From a virus, in the UHGV virus genome UHGV-0181047: 42,393 nucleotides of DNA. One strand, written 5' to 3'. Numbering within the stretch: the stretch's first letter is position 1; each line of letters starts with the position of its first letter. This document shows, piece by piece, positions 2,937 through 32,254 of the stretch. Made by a program: the position numbers and the translations under genes. Under the pieces are notes generated by a model that was not told the DNA's origin, ran no database searches, and saw only the letters and a program-made list of their open reading frames with translations.

Positions 2937-3120
2937 GGTGGAGTACAAAAAAGAGGACATTCGGCTGTTGACGGCATTGCTTAATGCAATGACTGTAACT
3001 GGGCTTGAAAATATAAAACTTATGGCACGGGCTGCAGATATCATTAATACTGGAGTTGTAAAAGAAGTTCCGGAAAAACCGAAGCATACTGGAAAGGAAG
3101 AACAGAATGAAACTGAGTGA
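2929..3120 (+). CDS. Small hypothetical protein (63 aa)
   Basis: ATG 2929 preceded by GGAGG; 4-bp-type overlap with upstream gene. Confidence 0.4.
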   Translation: MAKVEYKKEDIRLLTALLNAMTVTGLENIKLMARAADIINTGVVKEVPEKPKHTGKEEQNETE

Positions 3121-3877
3121 TTTATTTTATGCCATAGTAGGGTGGGTAAACTACCCGGATACATCTACACCGGTGGGAAAAACGAATCTGCGGCATATGG
3201 ATAATGGTATCCTGCAATGTGCTCAGTACATTTTGGGGCTATCTCAGGATAAATTGGAGGTATCAGAAGCAGCAAAATTCATTACAGGCTGGGAAGTGGA
3301 TACCAAGACCTGGATCGTAACGGTAACACATAAGGACGGCACAGTGGAGACGGTAGATTTCCCTATTGAGATGATGCCGACAAAGCTTGACCTTGATGAA
3401 GATGATAATCTCGTGCTGGTCCAGCAGGACGGAACCACAAAGAAGATTAGCTTCCAACGTTTTGTTTATAACGTTTCCAGTACAGCGACGGTTGCCATGA
3501 AGTTGGACGGGACAACCATATCAGCCAATGTAGTAGACGGATCCATTACAGCAAATAAGCTAGAGCCTACATTGCAGAAGACTTTACGGCAGTATATGCT
3601 TGATGCTCAGGCAGCAGCGCAAGAGGCAGAGGCATATAATAAATCATCTATAAGCTATGCTGTGGGTGGTACTGGCTCCAGAACAGGGGAAGATACTGAT
3701 AACAGCAAATATTATAGCGAAAAGGCAAAAGAAGAAGCTGAAAAGGCTGGATCATATGCAAATCTGATATTCCCAGAATTTTATCTGGATACATCAACAG
3801 GGCATTTGATTTGCAAACAAGGAAAAACAGTAACAGTTAAAGTTGAAAATGATCATGTATTAGTGGAGGTGGCATAG
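3107..3877 (+). CDS. Baseplate/tail-fibre protein (BppU-like position)
   Basis: 256 aa between Tal and RBP; NVVDGSITANKL fibre-like motif; Ala/Glu-rich coiled segment. Confidence 0.5.
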   Translation: MKLSDLFYAIVGWVNYPDTSTPVGKTNLRHMDNGILQCAQYILGLSQDKLEVSEAAKFITGWEVDTKTWIVTVTHKDGTVETVDFPIEMMPTKLDLDEDDNLVLVQQDGTTKKISFQRFVYNVSSTATVAMKLDGTTISANVVDGSITANKLEPTLQKTLRQYMLDAQAAAQEAEAYNKSSISYAVGGTGSRTGEDTDNSKYYSEKAKEEAEKAGSYANLIFPEFYLDTSTGHLICKQGKTVTVKVENDHVLVEVA

Positions 3878-4563
3878 TGGCAAGTACAACAGATCTTGGT
3901 AAGTGGATGATTACCAATGGCGGAGAATACAATCCGGAAACAGCATATGAACAACTTACAATGGTAATGTATGAAAACAGTACATATATTACCTTAAAGA
4001 CTGTACAAGGCATCACACCTACAGATGATCATGTTAATTATCAGCTGATGGCCAAAGGTTTTAACCCTACAGCCCTGGCATCAGTGCAGGCAGAGGATAC
4101 CAGCGGAGTGCTGGGAGAAGCAGGAGGCACCGTGTCAGCCCAGGATCTTGTAGACTGGGTAGTAGACCAGGCAGCCAATAAACTGCTCAAATTGACGGAC
4201 CTGGTAAGTGTACAGACCAATGATCCGACCAAGGGTGTATCTGCGGCTCTGGCCTATGCTATGGGCCAGAAGATTGATGAAGTAAATAGTAATTTAGATA
4301 ACCGTATAGGTGTTGGCGAAAAGTTTACATCAGGTACTCTATTAAATATCATAAAGCAAATGTCTGATGGTATACATATGGCATTGGTTAGTGAAACCGT
4401 TTCTGATATTCCTTTTTCAAATACAGAAAACTACATTATTGTATTTAAAGGCACCAGTTACGGTGATCCATATACCAGAATAATGGCATTTCCCATGCCA
4501 AAAAGTTCTGCTCCAAAATGGGGAATGGTCTCATGGGAGAGTAGTAAAATTGTTTGGATCTAA
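3877..4563 (+). CDS. Receptor-binding protein (228 aa) with exchangeable C-terminal head domain
   Basis: GTG 3877 overlapping upstream stop (taGTG), GGAGGTG RBS. Last 88 aa follow the NSNL junction (4285-4296) and are paralogous to the promoterless cassettes downstream. Confidence 0.6.
   Translation: MASTTDLGKWMITNGGEYNPETAYEQLTMVMYENSTYITLKTVQGITPTDDHVNYQLMAKGFNPTALASVQAEDTSGVLGEAGGTVSAQDLVDWVVDQAANKLLKLTDLVSVQTNDPTKGVSAALAYAMGQKIDEVNSNLDNRIGVGEKFTSGTLLNIIKQMSDGIHMALVSETVSDIPFSNTENYIIVFKGTSYGDPYTRIMAFPMPKSSAPKWGMVSWESSKIVWI
4285..4296 (+). repeat. Core site 1 AATAGTAATTTA (NSNL codons) at constant/variable junction of RBP gene
   Basis: Identical 12-mer recurs at 4877-4888 (inverted), 6638-6649 (inverted), 8543-8554 (direct) and degenerate at 9115-9127. 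Confidence 0.7.
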
Positions 4564-4573
4564 AATGATCATT

Positions 4574-4888
4574 TTACTTATGCGTCAACGTAAAATCTCT
4601 ATTGGATATAATGACGCATTCATCCCAAGTACCCATTCCAGTAATTGATAAACGCGCTACCTTTCCCACACTATTGCAAGCCACTTTATATGTAGATCGA
4701 TTTACAAGAGCAGTGACATTTCCAATATTATGAAAAGAATATAGTCCTCCATCAGCTATGACCAAACCGCAAAAATGACTGCTGTCTATTATGGATGTTG
4801 CAAATACTTGTGTGTATTCACCTTCATTGGCAATTTTTTTGATGTATACATTACTGATGCAGCTGCTAACGATTGCTAAATTACTATT
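4574..4888 (-). other. Promoterless RBP C-terminal cassette 2 (inverted), starts at core site, no start codon
   Basis: Minus-strand frame opens with NSNL at 4888-4877 and runs ~100 codons to stop at 4576-4574, tail-to-tail with the expressed RBP across palindrome TAAAATGATCATTTTA. Confidence 0.6.
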
Positions 4889-4921
4889 TACGTCAATTAA
4901 ACTAAGAAAGGAAAATAAAAG

Positions 4922-5332
4922 ATGAATGAAAAATTAAGATTAAAAAATGGGGATGAATTCCCCTTAGTAACTGATGGAGTTACAGAGTATAACGATACTC
5001 TCAAACTGACCTTTCAGTCAGACGAAAAATTAGAAGATTTAATCGCAGATTTTTCAAAAGACTCCAATACAGAGCAGATCAAGGTTATTAATGCAACCGG
5101 AGAAACATTATCAATCTATGACGGTTATACAGTTCTGGGTGATCCAAAAAGCATTAATGAAAATGCTGTTATCACAGCGGCAACATATGACGATGATGGG
5201 GATGTAAAGGCAGAGGCTGTTATAGGAAGAACAGCAACGTTTTCACTTTCAAAGCCAGGAATCACTGAGCAGGTAAAGCAGAACCGCGCAGATATTGATT
5301 TTTTAGCGGTTATGACAGGAAATGACTTATAG
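4922..5332 (+). CDS. Hypothetical protein (XkdW-like position)
   Basis: 136 aa ORF between tail-fibre module and the XkdX-like gene. Confidence 0.45.
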   Translation: MNEKLRLKNGDEFPLVTDGVTEYNDTLKLTFQSDEKLEDLIADFSKDSNTEQIKVINATGETLSIYDGYTVLGDPKSINENAVITAATYDDDGDVKAEAVIGRTATFSLSKPGITEQVKQNRADIDFLAVMTGNDL

Positions 5333-5343
5333 GAGGAAAAAGT

Positions 5344-5475
5344 ATGTTAAGTGTAAAAAATATGGCTGAAAAGTATTATCCTAAATACTGGACCAAAGAG
5401 CGGTTACGGGATTTAGTAGAAGCAAAAAAACTGACAGAAGCAGAGTACTATGAGATCACTGGAGAAAAGTATTAA
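5344..5475 (+). CDS. XkdX-family small phage protein (43 aa)
   Basis: AGGAGG RBS; ...KYWTKERLRDLVEAKKLTEAEYYEITGEKY resembles the XkdX consensus (W..E.L...V....IT..EY..ITG). Confidence 0.55.
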   Translation: MLSVKNMAEKYYPKYWTKERLRDLVEAKKLTEAEYYEITGEKY

Positions 5476-5492
5476 GTTGCACCGGTGCAACT
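5475..5492. repeat. Perfect 18-bp palindrome AGTTGCACCGGTGCAACT (parS-like)
   Basis: Also at 28871-28886 (16/18), 34363-34380 (17/18) and 16667-16683 (one core mismatch). Confidence 0.7.
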
Positions 5493-5508
5493 AAAAGGAG
5501 GACTTTTT

Positions 5509-6228
5509 GTGCGAGATATAACATTATGTCATCCACGGCTGCAGACTTTGGCCCAGGAGTTGATAAAAGTCTGCAACAAAAGTGGATTAAAGATAAAAAT
5601 CGGAGAAACATTTAGGACCAAAGAAGAGCAAGATGATTTGTACGCTCAGGGAAGAACCAAACCGGGAAATGTTGTAACTAATGCGCCAGGATCAAGTTAT
5701 AGCTCTTATCATCAATGGGGGACAGCATTTGATATTTACAGAGCAGACGGAAAAGGTGCGTACTATGACAGTGACGGGTTCTTTTCAAAAGCTGGTGCCA
5801 TAGGAGTAAAACTTGGCCTTGAATGGGGCGGAAACTGGCACAGCATTGTAGATAAGCCACATTTCCAACTTCCAGATTGGGGGAGTGGGACAGCGGGGAT
5901 AAAGAAAATGTATGCTACTCCAGAAGAGTTTATGAAGACGTGGGTCAAGCAGGAAGGCTGGATCCATGACAGTAATGGGTGGTGGTACTGCAACAAAGAT
6001 GGAAGTTACCCAAAAAACAAATGGGGACTGATAAATCATCACTGGTATCTTTTTAACAAAGATGGTTATGCATGCACCAGCTGGCATCGTTGGAATGGAA
6101 GTATTTGCGATCCAGAGGACGGATCTGGAGATTGGTATTATTTCGACCCTACACCCAATGGACAAACAGAATGTGCTTGCTGGAAAAGCAACGACAAGGG
6201 AGCATTAGGAGTGTGGTACGTTGAGTAA
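5509..6228 (+). CDS. Endolysin: peptidase M15 (VanY-like L-Ala-D-Glu / D,D-peptidase) plus cell-wall-binding repeats
   Basis: GTG 5509 after AAAGGAGGA. SYHQWGTAFDI (HxxxxxxD) and DKPHFQ zinc-ligand motifs. C-terminal GWWY/NGxWY choline-binding-type repeats. Confidence 0.8.
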   Translation: MRDITLCHPRLQTLAQELIKVCNKSGLKIKIGETFRTKEEQDDLYAQGRTKPGNVVTNAPGSSYSSYHQWGTAFDIYRADGKGAYYDSDGFFSKAGAIGVKLGLEWGGNWHSIVDKPHFQLPDWGSGTAGIKKMYATPEEFMKTWVKQEGWIHDSNGWWYCNKDGSYPKNKWGLINHHWYLFNKDGYACTSWHRWNGSICDPEDGSGDWYYFDPTPNGQTECACWKSNDKGALGVWYVE

Positions 6229-6370
6229 AAACAAAATGCCACTAACTCAATAGTAAATATGGTTATAACTAAAATAAGGAATAATCCAATAGGAACGCCT
6301 TATAAAATAGAAAGTCTTTCTATGGAATGGGATTCGACAAATTGGCAAAGTGTTGATTTAATATGATCAT

Positions 6371-6649
6371 TTAATCCCAAACGATTTGACTACTGTTCCA
6401 GAAGACCATTCCCCATTTTGGAATCGAGTGTTCAGCCATGGCAAATGCCATTATTCTGGTATATGGATCACCGTAACTGGTGCCTTTAAATACAATAATG
6501 TAGTTTTCTGTATTTGAAAAAGGAATACCAGAAACTTTTTTATCAACCAATGCCATATGTATACCATCAGACATTTGCTTTATGATACTTAATAACTCAC
6601 CTGATGTAAACTTTTCACTAACGCTTATACGATTGTTTAAATTACTATT
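6371..6649 (-). other. Promoterless RBP C-terminal cassette 3 (inverted), mosaic paralogue of expressed head domain
   Basis: Minus-strand frame from core site 6649-6638 (NSNL) to stop 6373-6371. Shares 43-bp and 84-bp blocks of 100% identity with 4347-4389 and 4408-4491. No start codon or RBS. Confidence 0.65.
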
Positions 6650-6672
6650 TCTTAAAATCGGAGGTAAAAAGA

Positions 6673-6861
6673 ATGAAAATTGCAGGAAAAGAATTCAAGG
6701 AAATTTTGGTCATTAAGGATAATGAAGAACTGGTTATAAGCATCACGGATGAGAATGTGATAGAAAAGGAAGGATATAAAGCGATATGTGTGCCGGTGAG
6801 TGATCAGCCTACCGGAAGTAAGTCACACGAAATATCACACGAATGTGATAAGACCGCATAA
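6673..6861 (+). CDS. Hypothetical small protein
   Basis: ATG with GGAGGT RBS, 62 aa. Confidence 0.4.
   Translation: MKIAGKEFKEILVIKDNEELVISITDENVIEKEGYKAICVPVSDQPTGSKSHEISHECDKTA
6820..6850 (+). repeat. Arm-type direct repeats (TCACACG x2) left of attP core
   Basis: aagtcacacgaaatatcacacg; same heptamer repeated 3x at 7020-7050. Confidence 0.45.
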
Positions 6862-6874
6862 ATACGTAATTTAT

Positions 6875-6900
6875 GGCGGGTTCGAATCCCGTCTCGCGCT
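6875..6900 (+). other. tRNA 3'-end fragment (T-arm + acceptor), probable attP core
   Basis: GCGGG-TTCGAAT-CCCGT T-arm followed by 7-nt acceptor strand CTCGCGC and discriminator. No D or anticodon arms upstream. Adjacent to integrase. Confidence 0.5.
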
Positions 6901-6904
6901 TCAA

Positions 6905-6953
6905 TAAAAAACCTTGTAAATACTGGATTTTCTAGCATTTACAAGGTTTTTTC
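6905..6953. terminator. Bidirectional hairpin (15-bp stem) with flanking A/T tracts
   Basis: aaaaaccttgtaaat...atttacaaggtttttt. Confidence 0.4.
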
Positions 6954-7017
6954 ATGCTTTCATAAAAATGAAAAGGACAGTATGCTTCCTTAAAAGGAAA
7001 GTTTTTTACGGTACCTA

Positions 7018-7050
7018 AGTCACACGAAAGTCACACGGAAATATCACACG
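7018..7050 (+). repeat. Arm-type direct repeats (TCACACG x3) right of attP core
   Basis: aagtcacacgaaagtcacacggaaatatcacacg, same orientation as left cluster. Confidence 0.45.
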
Positions 7051-8081
7051 GCAAAATGAGAGAAATGATCAAGGATTTTTTCATTCTGTCGGATCGCTTC
7101 TTCTGTGATCTGGTTGACGTAGACACGGCGCATCATGTAGTTTGAGGACCAGCCCCCACGCTTTTGTATATACAGATCCGGAACGCCCATAGCATGCATG
7201 ATTGAAGCTCCATAGTGCCGCAGATCATGAAAGCGGAAATGGGGAACACCGGATTTTATCAAAGCCTTCCGGAAACGATGAGAAAGTGCTGTAGGTGTAC
7301 AGGTAACCAGAGGACCGTGAAAAGCATGGATCTTTGTGATCACAAAATCCGGAAAAACAACTTTCCGGTAAGACTGGTAAGTCTTAGGTGCCTTGTCGAT
7401 CAACTGGTTGTTGCGGCCATAGACCAGGTTGTGCGAAATGCAGACTGTATTGCCCTGTACATCGGTTGTGGTCAAGGAACACACTTCCCCAAGCCGCAAA
7501 GGGCCAAAGGCCGCCAGAAGGATAGCAATCTCCAGCTCCGGATCATCCTTGACTGTCTGCAGAAGTTTTTTTATATCTGTGTCAGATGGGCAGTACAGAT
7601 CAGTTTGCACTTTTGCGGGAAGTGTGGCAGAGGCCAGTGAGTTTTTGGGGGCAAACATTGCCAGCGCAGGAGTGAAAAGCGCATAGATATTTGCGACTGT
7701 CTTAGGAGACCTGCCTTTAGATATGTCAGATATCCATAGCTGTATATCCTGATCCGTAAGGTCCGCCAGGGCGAAGTTTCCAAAAACTCCGGAAAAATGT
7801 GATTTGAGCAAAGAGTCATATCCTCGGAGAGTGGATCCGGACAAGACTCCTTCTTTTGTCTGGATGTATCTTTCAACAGCATCATGTACGGTCAGGGATG
7901 CTGCAGGTTTGGAAGACTGCAATTTCTTCTGGATCTTCCATTCATCACGGAGAGCTTTAGCTTCAGTCAGAGTGCTGGCGGTAAAGCTCTTGTAGTGCTT
8001 TTTCCCGGTTTCGTCCATGTAGTCAAAGGCCTGGACACGGACAGAGCCGGACGGTAAACGATTTTTCTTCTTTTTGGGCAT
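7044..8081 (-). CDS. int: Site-specific tyrosine integrase
   Basis: 345 aa; R...HDLRH...Y catalytic signature (RFHDLRHYGAS, RVYVNQ) with N-terminal SAM-like core-binding domain; next to attP-like region. Confidence 0.9.
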   Translation of the reverse strand: MPKKKKNRLPSGSVRVQAFDYMDETGKKHYKSFTASTLTEAKALRDEWKIQKKLQSSKPAASLTVHDAVERYIQTKEGVLSGSTLRGYDSLLKSHFSGVFGNFALADLTDQDIQLWISDISKGRSPKTVANIYALFTPALAMFAPKNSLASATLPAKVQTDLYCPSDTDIKKLLQTVKDDPELEIAILLAAFGPLRLGEVCSLTTTDVQGNTVCISHNLVYGRNNQLIDKAPKTYQSYRKVVFPDFVITKIHAFHGPLVTCTPTALSHRFRKALIKSGVPHFRFHDLRHYGASIMHAMGVPDLYIQKRGGWSSNYMMRRVYVNQITEEAIRQNEKILDHFSHFAV

Positions 8082-8212
8082 AATGTATCATCCTCCTGAA
8101 TAAAATTTATATGGGCCACGAAGTTGATAGGGCTTGCATGGCTGCTGGAAGAGTGATACAATATAAACGGTTGGAGTTTGATGTTGTATCACTCAACACA
8201 ATCTTACTAAAA

Positions 8213-8542: not shown

Positions 8543-8845
8543 AATAGTAATTTAATTTCTGTAAAGACGTTTGGAATTGAAGTTACAACCAGATCAACTA
8601 AGGATCCGACATCTGATTTATATATTGGATCATACAAACTTGTTGAATCTCCGTCATATCCCGAAGGAGAAAATATATTAGCAGTAATCCCATATAGTGC
8701 CAGATCGAAATCAGATGCAGGACGTTCAGCTATGGTCGCATATAGAACTAGTGATACACTTATTAGTGTAAATTCACCGAATCAGCCTAACGAGGTATTT
8801 GTTGTAAATATTGCAGTATTTTATTCATTTTCTAATAACAAATGA
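8543..8845 (+). other. Promoterless RBP C-terminal cassette 4 (direct orientation)
   Basis: Begins at core AATAGTAATTTA (NSNL), 100 codons, ends TGA inside palindrome AAATGATCATTT. No start codon. Sequence unrelated to cassettes 1-3. Confidence 0.6.
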
Positions 8846-9303
8846 TCATTTTGTAGCAAATTCTCGCCAGGCTGTCCATGTGTTTGTATCCTCATCTCTA
8901 TATCGTGTGTACAAAGACACTCCATTGGTTGCAATTAAGCATGAGTAATTTCCATTACCATTGTATGGTATATTAATAGCACACACCCAACCTGACGTAG
9001 GTGCATTTTGGGAATTAAACCCAGAATACCAACCTTGTATAGAAATATTATTCCAATCGTTAATATTACCATCTTGAAGATATAAAGGTTGAGGGATCTT
9101 ATCTTGTTTATAGCTTAATTACTATCTTGGACAATACTGTATAAAGGATGACTTCCTTCGGAAGATACTATGCAAAATGAGTAAAGTGTCCTACCAGCTG
9201 GTATATATTTGCTCAGATCAATGCTACCTGTTTTCCCAGTGGTAGAAACAACTTCTCTACCAAAGACTGCTTGTACAGGTAGTAGATCCGTAGTATAAAG
9301 CAA
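8846..9303 (-). pseudogene. Decayed RBP 3' copy / cassette 5 (inverted) with 1-nt deletion in core site
   Basis: Minus strand: ...KLLYTTDLLPVQA...VQDSN then GATAGTAATT-AAGC (core missing one T) shifts frame; downstream 88 codons (SYKQDKIPQPLYL...REFATK) end at TGA in the 8840-8851 palindrome. Confidence 0.5.
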
Positions 9304-10139: not shown

Positions 10140-10443
10140 ATTTTGTAACGTATTCTATTACTTCCTTAAGACCATTTACAAAACGGTTTTCCATATAAAT
10201 GATAGCGGAATCGGTTAGAGTGAAATCACCCAAGATATCAGTTTTAACGAGTCCGGCGCGTTGTAATTCAGCTAATGTTGAATCGCAATCAGACGGGGAC
10301 CAGGAAGAAAAGGCATCATTTTTTGAAAAATAATTTTCTTCAAATTTACGGGCCTTTGATTTAGGAACTCCGTTTTTGCGTAGCTGTAAATAGGTTGCAT
10401 AAATACGGCAAATCATTTTGTCAGCATCTTTAGTAAGCTGCAT
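10129..10443 (-). CDS. Hypothetical protein encoded antisense within the early operon
   Basis: 104 aa, AAAGGAG RBS, flanked by the two paralogous plus-strand genes. Confidence 0.5.
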   Translation of the reverse strand: MQLTKDADKMICRIYATYLQLRKNGVPKSKARKFEENYFSKNDAFSSWSPSDCDSTLAELQRAGLVKTDILGDFTLTDSAIIYMENRFVNGLKEVIEYVTKFIP

Positions 10444-10883: not shown

Positions 10884-11042
10884 ATGTCGGAAGAAAAGAG
10901 AAATCTCATCAGAGACGTGACCACGAAGATCAACGATCTCCCGGATTTACAGAAGCAGTATGTGGCAGGTCTTATCAATGGCTTGCTGTTGGCGGCAACA
11001 ACAAATAAACCGGAGGAAGAGGCAAAATGCATGCAGAAATAG
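10884..11042 (+). CDS. Hypothetical small protein (52 aa)
   Basis: AAAGGAG RBS. Confidence 0.35.
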   Translation: MSEEKRNLIRDVTTKINDLPDLQKQYVAGLINGLLLAATTNKPEEEAKCMQK

Positions 11043-22366: not shown

Positions 22367-23404
22367 ATGCACGAAGATATAAAGAAAGAGATTATCAACA
22401 ACGTAGTAGTAGCAATGTCTTGTTACATCAGTGATATGGATGTTTTAAATGTCCTGGAAAATATATTGAGTACCGAACTGATCCAGGTCAAAGTGGAGAA
22501 GACAAATTCTCTTCCATCGGAGTGGAAAAGCGAAACTGAAAAAAGAAATCAGTATCTCATCCAGCTTTTTATGATAAAAAAGCGAGGTCTCAGTAAAGAA
22601 ACGATACAAGGATATCTGAGGAGTGTGAAAAGACTGATGCTCATGGTGAGCAAGCCACTGGATCAGGTAGATACACTGGATATTGAATGGTATTTGGCAG
22701 CATATGAAAAGCGGCCAGGGCAGAGGAAAGAAAAGATAGAAAATTCCACATATAACAGCGAGAGGCGCTTTTTGTCAGCTTTTTATACCTGGATGAGGAA
22801 GGCAAAGCTGATAAGCGAAAATCCTGTAGAAGCTACAGAAGCTAAAAAAGTACCGCAAAAGCCTATAGATTACTTTGCCAGAGAAGAAATCATAAAGCTA
22901 AGAGATGCCTGCAGGAATGCCAGGGAAAGGGCAATGGTGGAAGTTTTTAGATCAACTGGTGCCAGAGTAGGAGAAATCGCTGATATACAGCTTGATCAGG
23001 TGGTATTTGATACTGGCAGCATACTGATATGCGGAGAAAAAGGCGGACGATATCGGACTTTGTATTTGGATGATGATGCACGGCATTACTATCAGATCTA
23101 CCAGCAAAGCAGGACAGACAACAGCCCATATCTGTTTACGCAGCTCAGAAAGCCATACGGAAAGTTAGGAAAGAGCTCTTACAGAAACATTTTAAAAACC
23201 ATAGGAAAAAGGGCGGGACTGACAGTAAGGGTATATCCGCATAAAATGAGAAAAACACTGGGCATGGACCTGAAAAACAGAGGGGTAGATATAGGCACGA
23301 TTCAGGAAGTACTTGGACATGCAAGCCCAGCAGTTACAAGTCTCTACTATGCTCAGTCAACCGAAAAGACTTTGAGGGATATAAGAGAAAGAGTTGCAGC
23401 ATAA
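22367..23404 (+). CDS. XerC/XerD-like tyrosine recombinase (second recombinase)
   Basis: 345 aa; ...RVGEIADIQL..., HKMRKTLG, LGHASPAVTSLYY catalytic region; own terminator upstream. Confidence 0.85.
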   Translation: MHEDIKKEIINNVVVAMSCYISDMDVLNVLENILSTELIQVKVEKTNSLPSEWKSETEKRNQYLIQLFMIKKRGLSKETIQGYLRSVKRLMLMVSKPLDQVDTLDIEWYLAAYEKRPGQRKEKIENSTYNSERRFLSAFYTWMRKAKLISENPVEATEAKKVPQKPIDYFAREEIIKLRDACRNARERAMVEVFRSTGARVGEIADIQLDQVVFDTGSILICGEKGGRYRTLYLDDDARHYYQIYQQSRTDNSPYLFTQLRKPYGKLGKSSYRNILKTIGKRAGLTVRVYPHKMRKTLGMDLKNRGVDIGTIQEVLGHASPAVTSLYYAQSTEKTLRDIRERVAA

Positions 23405-32181: not shown

Positions 32182-32254
32182 GGACCGCTATCTCAGCTGG
32201 AAGAGAAGCCGCCTCATAAGCGGCGGGTCCTGGGTTCGAATCCCAGGTGGTCCA
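32182..32254 (+). tRNA. tRNA with CAU anticodon (elongator Met or Ile2 type)
   Basis: Hand-folded cloverleaf: acceptor GGACCGC/GTGGTCC (one G-U), D-stem TCTC/GAGA with GG loop, anticodon stem GCCGC/GCGGC, loop CTCATAA, T-arm CTGGG-TTCGAAT-CCCAG, discriminator A. Confidence 0.8.

Follow-up and report, generated by a model that had tools for sequence, protein, structure and literature searches.

We analyzed UHGV-0181047, a circular phage genome of 42.4 kb (42,393 nt; the whole stretch is referred to below as the window), in which a long inverted repeat joins the 3' end of an expressed tail-fiber gene to a silent cassette downstream of an endolysin gene. The two arms of this repeat, cassettes E and B, are most probably allelic C-terminal tips of one tail-fiber gene within a site-specific multiple-inversion system (shufflon). 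Because the same sites bound segments in both orientations in related phages, and because Xer-like recombinases often adjoin the cassettes there, we assign the system to the Rin/R64 type.

The tail-fiber gene (3877-4563, + strand) encodes 228 aa from a GTG start, according to the open reading frame (ORF) call and its translation. Its constant N-terminal part (3877-4284, +) gives weak PHROG tail-fiber hits, and the preceding genes encode a tail protein of 703 aa, which has an endosialidase-chaperone domain, and then a protein of 256 aa. At the constant/variable junction lies an exact copy of the 12-bp site AATAGTAATTTA (s1, 4285-4296, +), read in frame as Asn-Ser-Asn-Leu. Cassette E (4285-4563, +), the expressed 92-aa C-terminal tip, starts here; it is a type-1 allele and forms one arm of the inverted repeat. 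Cassette A (4574-4888, -), a silent 104-aa tip unrelated to E, abuts E tail to tail and includes site s2 at 4877-4888. Exact copies of AATAGTAATTTA occur four times in the window, at 4285 (+), 4888 (-), 6649 (-), and 8543 (+), and each opens a cassette frame. The same pattern has zero occurrences in 512 kb of unrelated phage DNA used as a control.

Cassettes E and A make up the first of three modules of convergent cassette pairs, the others being C'/B and D/F. In module 2, C' (~6249-6368, +) is a decayed cassette, homologous to the silent cassette of a related locus (L108) and truncated in its 3' part. Of its site, the left 8 bp (s3*, AATAGTAA) are all that remain, and comparison with L108 suggests that the right half of the site was lost through a deletion of ~20 nt. 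Cassette B (6371-6649, -), with site s4 at 6638-6649, is the other arm of the inverted repeat. It is a silent 92-aa tip, a type-2 allele, and its frame is open and has no start codon; its amino acid identity to E is 81%. Module 3 consists of D (8543-8845, +), an intact 100-aa open frame that begins at exact site s5 (8543-8554), and the decayed cassette F (8846-9126, -). F carries a frameshift and a degenerate site (s6*, GATAGTAATTAA, 9115-9126) in which the Leu codon is now a stop codon, and its intact part (8986-8846) is 89% identical to cassettes of L148 and L156. Overall, a single constant 5' part is accompanied by alternative promoterless 3' cassettes, with E, A, B, and D open from site to stop. 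The short conserved site is present in the expressed gene and, inverted, at cassette starts, in four exact and two degenerate copies.

Relatives of the fiber show the same organization and supply the evidence for inversion. Fiber-protein searches returned 57 related loci, 17 viral and 40 from human-gut metagenomes, cited here by L numbers. Most carry one site where the constant and variable parts meet and a second, inverted one 480-700 bp further downstream; in a few, such as L005/L006, the junction site is degenerate or was not detected. Conservation across 103 distinct site contexts covers 13 bp and does not reach into the flanks. A protein-database search identified 573 homologues of the fiber N-terminal part, and tips and junctions were examined in the 120 closest. 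Nearly all of these (115/120) match only the constant part (~61-94% of the query) and have other C-termini, and 119/120 carry the junction motif. The tips, ~91 aa long, fall into at least 35 unrelated clusters.

Both orientations of site-bounded segments, with breakpoints at the sites, were found in three comparisons. L103 and L104 carry a 597-bp module in opposite orientations, at 99% identity and with collinear flanks. A 663-bp module is likewise reversed in L015 relative to L131, where the flanks are 100% and 98.6% identical. Relative to L015/L129, L124 has a 680-bp segment inverted exactly between a minus site and a plus site, with the breakpoint at the site. That segment contains an ORF (100 aa) and an attP-like region, so bracketed DNA other than cassettes also flips. 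Cassettes change position among phages as well, and identity stops at the site. A is proximal in the window and distal on the + strand in L003/L100, and B is silent in the window and expressed, at 99% identity, in L014/L118. Tips of the E type are the expressed ones in P0001-P0005 and L172-L174 as well, and in L172/L173 E is again paired with A; the A protein there is identical from the fourth residue on, and the flanking genes are only 60-91% identical.

The inverted repeat itself was first described in an earlier note on this DNA, which aligned three perfect blocks by eye. The blocks proved exact: 4347-4389 equals the reverse complement of 6545-6587 at 43/43 positions, 4408-4491 that of 6443-6526 at 84/84, and 4513-4531 that of 6403-6421 at 19/19. 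The stretches between them, estimated in the note as about half identical, match at 12/18 and 11/21 positions when counted on the alignment. All three blocks sit in a single ungapped inverted repeat of 281 nt (4284-4564 versus 6370-6650) that is 87% complementary. ORFs and alignment bear out the note's assignment of one arm to the expressed C-terminal domain of the tail-fiber gene and of the other to a silent cassette, and Pfam and PHROG hits bear out that the segment between the arms carries an XkdX-family gene and an endolysin gene. The arms differ at 37 of 279 coding nt, with a longest uninterrupted match of 85 nt, a length reached by ~1 in 100,000 permutations of the mismatch positions (p ~1e-5). 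Mismatches are thus clustered beyond chance, which refutes uniform divergence and shows the mosaic identity to be genuine. The differing codons number 22; the amino acid is changed in 18 of them, and 12 have at least two base changes (two or three). The substitutions involve all bases, with no adenine bias.

The earlier note explained this mosaic by recent patchy gene conversion between E and B in this genome, with RecA-mediated inversion driven by the 84-bp repeat. We consider this explanation unlikely. The perfect blocks, significantly clustered as they are, would fit it, and a repeat of 84 bp is longer than RecA-type recombination minimally requires. However, the same block pattern is found between alleles of unrelated phages. 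Six distinct E/B-type sequences from different phages form two allele types that are 35-43 nt apart, and any type-1/type-2 pair differs at 0-7 of the 146 nt within blocks and at 32-38 of the remaining 133 nt. The same-genome E-B pair, 37 nt apart, lies within this cross-genome range and so is no more alike than cross-genome pairs are. Within the blocks, E and B have 0 differences versus 3-7 for cross-genome pairs, a weak excess in favor of conversion. Four-gamete incompatibilities in the allele family also favor it: 83/561 site pairs fail the test, which makes past recombination somewhere in the history of the family plausible. Recent conversion between E and B finds no support, given that different phages share the blocks and that B is 99% identical to an allele of another lineage, that of L014/L118. 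Nor are the cassettes of this genome patchily more alike than alleles of different genomes, as they would be in a pilE/pilS-type system. Because the same block pattern recurs across alleles of unrelated phages, the mosaic is, judging from the sequences compared, a property of the allele family: a constant scaffold with a few hypervariable patches, not the result of exchange within this genome. RecA-mediated inversion is likewise not needed, since a 12-bp site starts each cassette and the real inversion breakpoints in relatives fall at these sites; no chimeric or inverted isomer of the kind expected was found among the homologues searched. At low frequency, homologous recombination might still use the 84-bp block as a substrate. 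A diversity-generating retroelement might also have written the patches, with one copy serving as template for the other, the variable region, and the restriction of variation to short patches in a tail-fiber tip, the usual target of such elements, is in keeping with this. We reject it as extremely improbable. The substitution spectrum contradicts it, the two copies lie in inverted orientation, each being a full cassette that has its own site, and there is no reverse transcriptase among the 40 window ORFs scanned for Pfam domains, a scan that covers small ORFs only in part.

We therefore return to inversion at the 12-bp sites and propose the following mechanism. Each tip cassette begins with AATAGTAATTTA, and the site in the expressed gene would recombine with an inverted copy, flipping the intervening DNA. 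The flip would fuse the constant N-terminal part in frame to another tip, and such an exchange probably changes the host used by the phage. The E/A pair, directly after the gene, would switch both ways; C'/B follows the endolysin gene, and D/F lies beyond the integrase gene. We conclude that E/A is an intact two-way switch, presumably the one at work.

Access to B has a larger consequence. Recombination of s1 (4285, +) with s4 (6649, -) would yield the fiber-B fusion and invert 2.4 kb that carry the genes lying between modules 1 and 2. These encode a 136-aa protein (4922-5332, +), the XkdX-family protein (5344-5475, +), and the M15/VanY endolysin with cell-wall-binding repeats (5485-6228, +). 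In L002 and L003, which have four sites, the lysis module is bracketed by inverted sites and so could be flipped back; the equivalent bracketing site in the window, s3*, is destroyed. Since reaching B would invert the endolysin genes, and the partner cassettes and sites have decayed, B is most likely a stranded reserve cassette, although intact, and we conclude the same of D.

The enzyme responsible is presumably an Xer-like tyrosine recombinase. In L010, L108, L125, and many of L138-L169, such recombinases (~331 aa) directly adjoin sites and cassettes. There is no recombinase next to module 1 in the window, in contrast to these relatives with their adjacent dedicated enzyme. The 40 ORFs scanned include two tyrosine recombinases and an IS110 transposase, and no serine recombinase of the kind found in Gin/Cin/Min systems. 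One of the tyrosine recombinases, Rec2 (345 aa; 22367-23404, +; Pfam and NCBIfam hits), is the sole window homologue of the cassette-adjacent enzymes and so is a candidate invertase acting from a distance. It is 28-31% identical, over the full length, to the recombinases of L125, L010, and L108 (L125rec, L010rec, and L108rec), which are 26-39% identical to each other. Rec2 also shares an NCBIfam profile with the cassette-adjacent enzymes, and an extra N-terminal domain is common to both (hhalign 89%, E 2e-6). Viral contigs were searched with two Rec2 proteins as queries, and the best 80 of 124 hits were considered. Rec2 orthologues occur on the shufflon contigs of L002, L003, L015, and L017, and also on the L005 contig, where the only visible site is degenerate; none of the contigs among the matches listed has both a Rec2-type and a cassette-adjacent recombinase. 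Co-occurrence of Rec2 and shufflon was also searched with terminase, in phages that are mosaic in nature. On this evidence we tentatively put Rec2 forward as the invertase of this shufflon, with rather less than even confidence.

Several observations weigh against this account of the locus and of its enzyme. Inversion in this phage itself is deduced from orientations compared in relatives, not from its own isomers. Two of the six window sites are degenerate. In L171, whose neighboring proteins are 95-100% identical to those of the window, both sites are mutated, to AATAGTAATATA (10409-10420) and AATAGTAATTTT (10907-10918), and the second cassette is shortened; this module may be a locked switch. 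Parts of the system, then, are decaying. No lysis-inverted isomer was found, the fiber gene and endolysin gene being co-oriented in every related locus that has both. No fusion of the window-lineage N-terminus to a B-type tip occurs among the 573 homologues, and when the predicted fiber-B fusion was used as the query, the full-length relatives found were all E-type (86-89%). Rec2 lies 18 kb from the cassettes. Clostridium phage phiCs5676-1 (L275, OR574845.1) encodes a 53% Rec2 orthologue (36127-37173), has no 12-bp sites, and has an unrelated tail module. This lowers our confidence in Rec2, and the Rec2 family may have another role. Finally, the near-complete shufflon contigs L009, L014, and L016 have no Rec2 match among the best 80 of 124 hits.

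These last points bear on which enzyme acts, and other sources can be considered. The same shufflon may be served by an invertase from a co-resident prophage, with its own cassette-adjacent recombinase, or from the host, leaving Rec2 with a different role. We regard this as possible, if doubtful. It draws on the occurrence of one 12-bp site in many lineages despite recombinases that are 26-39% identical, since with a common site any such enzyme could act on all sites in the cell. The phiCs5676-1 orthologue without sites and the shufflon contigs without a Rec2 match point the same way. Against it stand the Rec2 genes on the contigs of L002, L003, L015, and L017, plus L005, the N-terminal domain that Rec2 has in common with cassette-adjacent enzymes, and the lack of any contig with both recombinase types among the matches listed. 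It is unlikely that the phage integrase (7044-8081) doubles as the invertase. Its gene sits between modules 2 and 3, and a third site abuts the integrase stop codon in L014, L015, L017, L129, and L131, but L103/L104/L105, which include the proven flip, and L172 have the same sites with an integrase that is only 26% identical to this one. Moreover, L125 has an integrase and a separate cassette-adjacent recombinase, and the window integrase comes with arm-type repeats of its own and a tRNA-like core that does not resemble the 12-bp site, and it shows no significant similarity to the cassette-adjacent recombinases. The minor share of probability that remains after Rec2, another element, and the integrase goes to an inversion system without present activity.

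A broader proposal, which we hold to be rather doubtful, is that the 12-bp sites also shuffle whole modules (endolysin; attP-integrase), within and between phages and genome-wide. An Xer-like recombinase encoded elsewhere, or by a co-resident prophage, would invert or exchange the bracketed modules. If true, this would be a module-shuffling system common to many human-gut Lachnospiraceae phages.

The region between modules 2 and 3 contains a 62-aa ORF (6673-6861, +), a tRNA 3'-end-like sequence (~6876-6904) with flanking TCACACG repeats, and the tyrosine integrase gene (7044-8081, -; Pfam Phage_integrase and SAM_3 domains). The tRNA-like stretch is a putative attP, as indicated by a T-loop-like GGTTCGAATCC and the TCACACG repeats. 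Intact sites at 6638-6649 (-) and 8543-8554 (+) bracket the 62-aa ORF, putative attP, and integrase gene; in the integrated state, these two sites would enclose nearly the whole prophage. In the lineage of L014, L015, L017, L129, and L131, the third site is in plus orientation and overlaps or abuts the integrase stop codon (L014 7412-7424, L015 7729-7741, L017 7744-7756, L129 2958-2969, and L131 8730-8741). The 680-bp segment that L124 has in the opposite orientation to L015/L129 runs from the minus site ahead of this third site up to the third site itself. Another 62-aa ORF (9115-9303, -) enters the degenerate site of module 3 in frame and ends ...QDSN + stop. It looks like a remnant of the constant part of a second fiber gene, and module 3 may therefore be a piece captured from the fiber locus of another phage.

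A 12-bp palindrome, AAATGATCATTT, lies between the two convergent stop codons of module 1 (4563-4574). It is also present at 8840-8851, with a variant at ~6362-6372, and related forms (AAATRATYATTT) are found at the meeting point of convergent cassettes in many modules of other loci. The palindrome overlaps the cassette stop codons or lies between them, in differing reading frames, which suggests that it acts at the DNA level.

A 1,739-bp IS110-family element (41550-42393 plus 1-895) is inserted between the distal-tail (DUF6711) gene and the gene for the 703-aa tail protein. Its transposase ORF (~408 aa, counted from the first Met) spans the window end and the window start, so the window is a complete genome, circularly permuted. 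L171, the closest relative, does not have this insertion, and its flanks are joined cleanly. A tRNA-Met gene (32182-32254) is located among the phage head genes. The only recognizable holin in relatives (Phage_holin_5_2; L171 367-633, L172 509-775) is encoded upstream of the tail genes, away from the endolysin, so the genes between modules 1 and 2 do not form a complete lysis cassette. In phiCs5676-1, a cultured phage of [Clostridium] scindens, the Rec2 orthologue is placed as in the window, with replication genes ahead of it and packaging genes following, and the phage has an integrase of its own. Its tail region contains an 11-nt inverted repeat in frame (12801/13927), which is compatible with chance and was discarded as a candidate.

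The hosts are probably Lachnospiraceae-type Firmicutes, and Rec2 homologues are present in Enterocloster, Lacrimispora, Hungatella, and other Lachnospiraceae. Megablast of 3100-8100 against deposited phage genomes gave no match, and the fiber protein gave one weak match to the same genomes. A scan of reference bacterial genomes with the fiber alignment found no relatives. An AlphaFold model of the fiber has a mean pLDDT of 37 and is unusable.

If our reading is correct, the locus represents a large family of shufflons carried by temperate phages of Firmicutes from the human gut and provides a concrete mechanism for quick host-range change in gut prophages. It would also account for many of the small "hypothetical" reverse-strand ORFs downstream of tail genes. 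The same tips circulate among phage lineages. Assemblies of such phages should be read with caution, as they show one isomer among several. With the cassettes split and no recombinase adjacent to them, the question arises of the range over which an invertase can act, both in distance from its sites and across elements.

We found no description of this shufflon family in the searchable literature. Among published systems, the one nearest to it is the Rin shufflon, known from Bifidobacterium prophages (Mavrich et al. 2018, PMC6109161) and also reported in Eggerthella lenta prophages (PMC8778435), with the R64 shufflon behind it. As in Rin, a receptor-binding or tail-fiber gene with a constant N-terminal part is followed by several promoterless C-terminal cassettes, and a short crossover site lies in the gene and before each cassette (8-11 bp in Rin, 12 bp here). 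Rin also involves an XerD-type tyrosine recombinase that is separate from the phage integrase and has no arm-binding domain, an enzyme to which Rec2 is likened by description; in both cases isomers were recognized via genome comparison. The differences are that the probable hosts here are Lachnospiraceae-type Firmicutes, whereas Rin occurs in Actinobacteria; that the site sequence differs; that the cassettes here form convergent pairs in three places, split by lysis genes and an attP-integrase segment; and that no recombinase adjoins the cassettes in this genome.

The R64 (IncI) shufflon uses the tyrosine recombinase Rci, encoded by an adjacent rci gene, and its target is the PilV pilus adhesin of the plasmid. 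Features in common are a tyrosine recombinase, presumed in the present system, multiple inversions at asymmetric short sites with a conserved core and non-conserved flanks, and replacement of the C-terminal part of one surface protein by segments that invert singly or in groups. Unlike R64, the target is a phage fiber rather than PilV, the site is unrelated, and the adjacent rci has no counterpart in position. Gin, Cin, and Min are serine invertases with a Fis-dependent enhancer. In phages Mu and P1 and in p15B, inversion by these enzymes likewise swaps the C-terminal part of a tail fiber and so alters host range (PMC6109161), and the Min system of p15B has several cassettes. The difference lies in enzyme class, with no serine recombinase among the window ORFs scanned. 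A further parallel is a second locus, without a recombinase, in tRNA-Met bifidophages, where a ~500-bp segment is inverted among relatives at a short repeat (PMC6109161). That segment covers a small gene and, convergent with it, the 3' end of a structural gene, and an invertase acting in trans was proposed (PMC6109161). The inverted segment and the lack of an adjoining recombinase resemble the locus described here; the site and proteins are unrelated, and there is a single module there. The general kind of system is already known. The present case differs in lacking an adjacent recombinase, in its site and likely host group, and in having modules dispersed on either side of the lysis genes and the attP-integrase segment.

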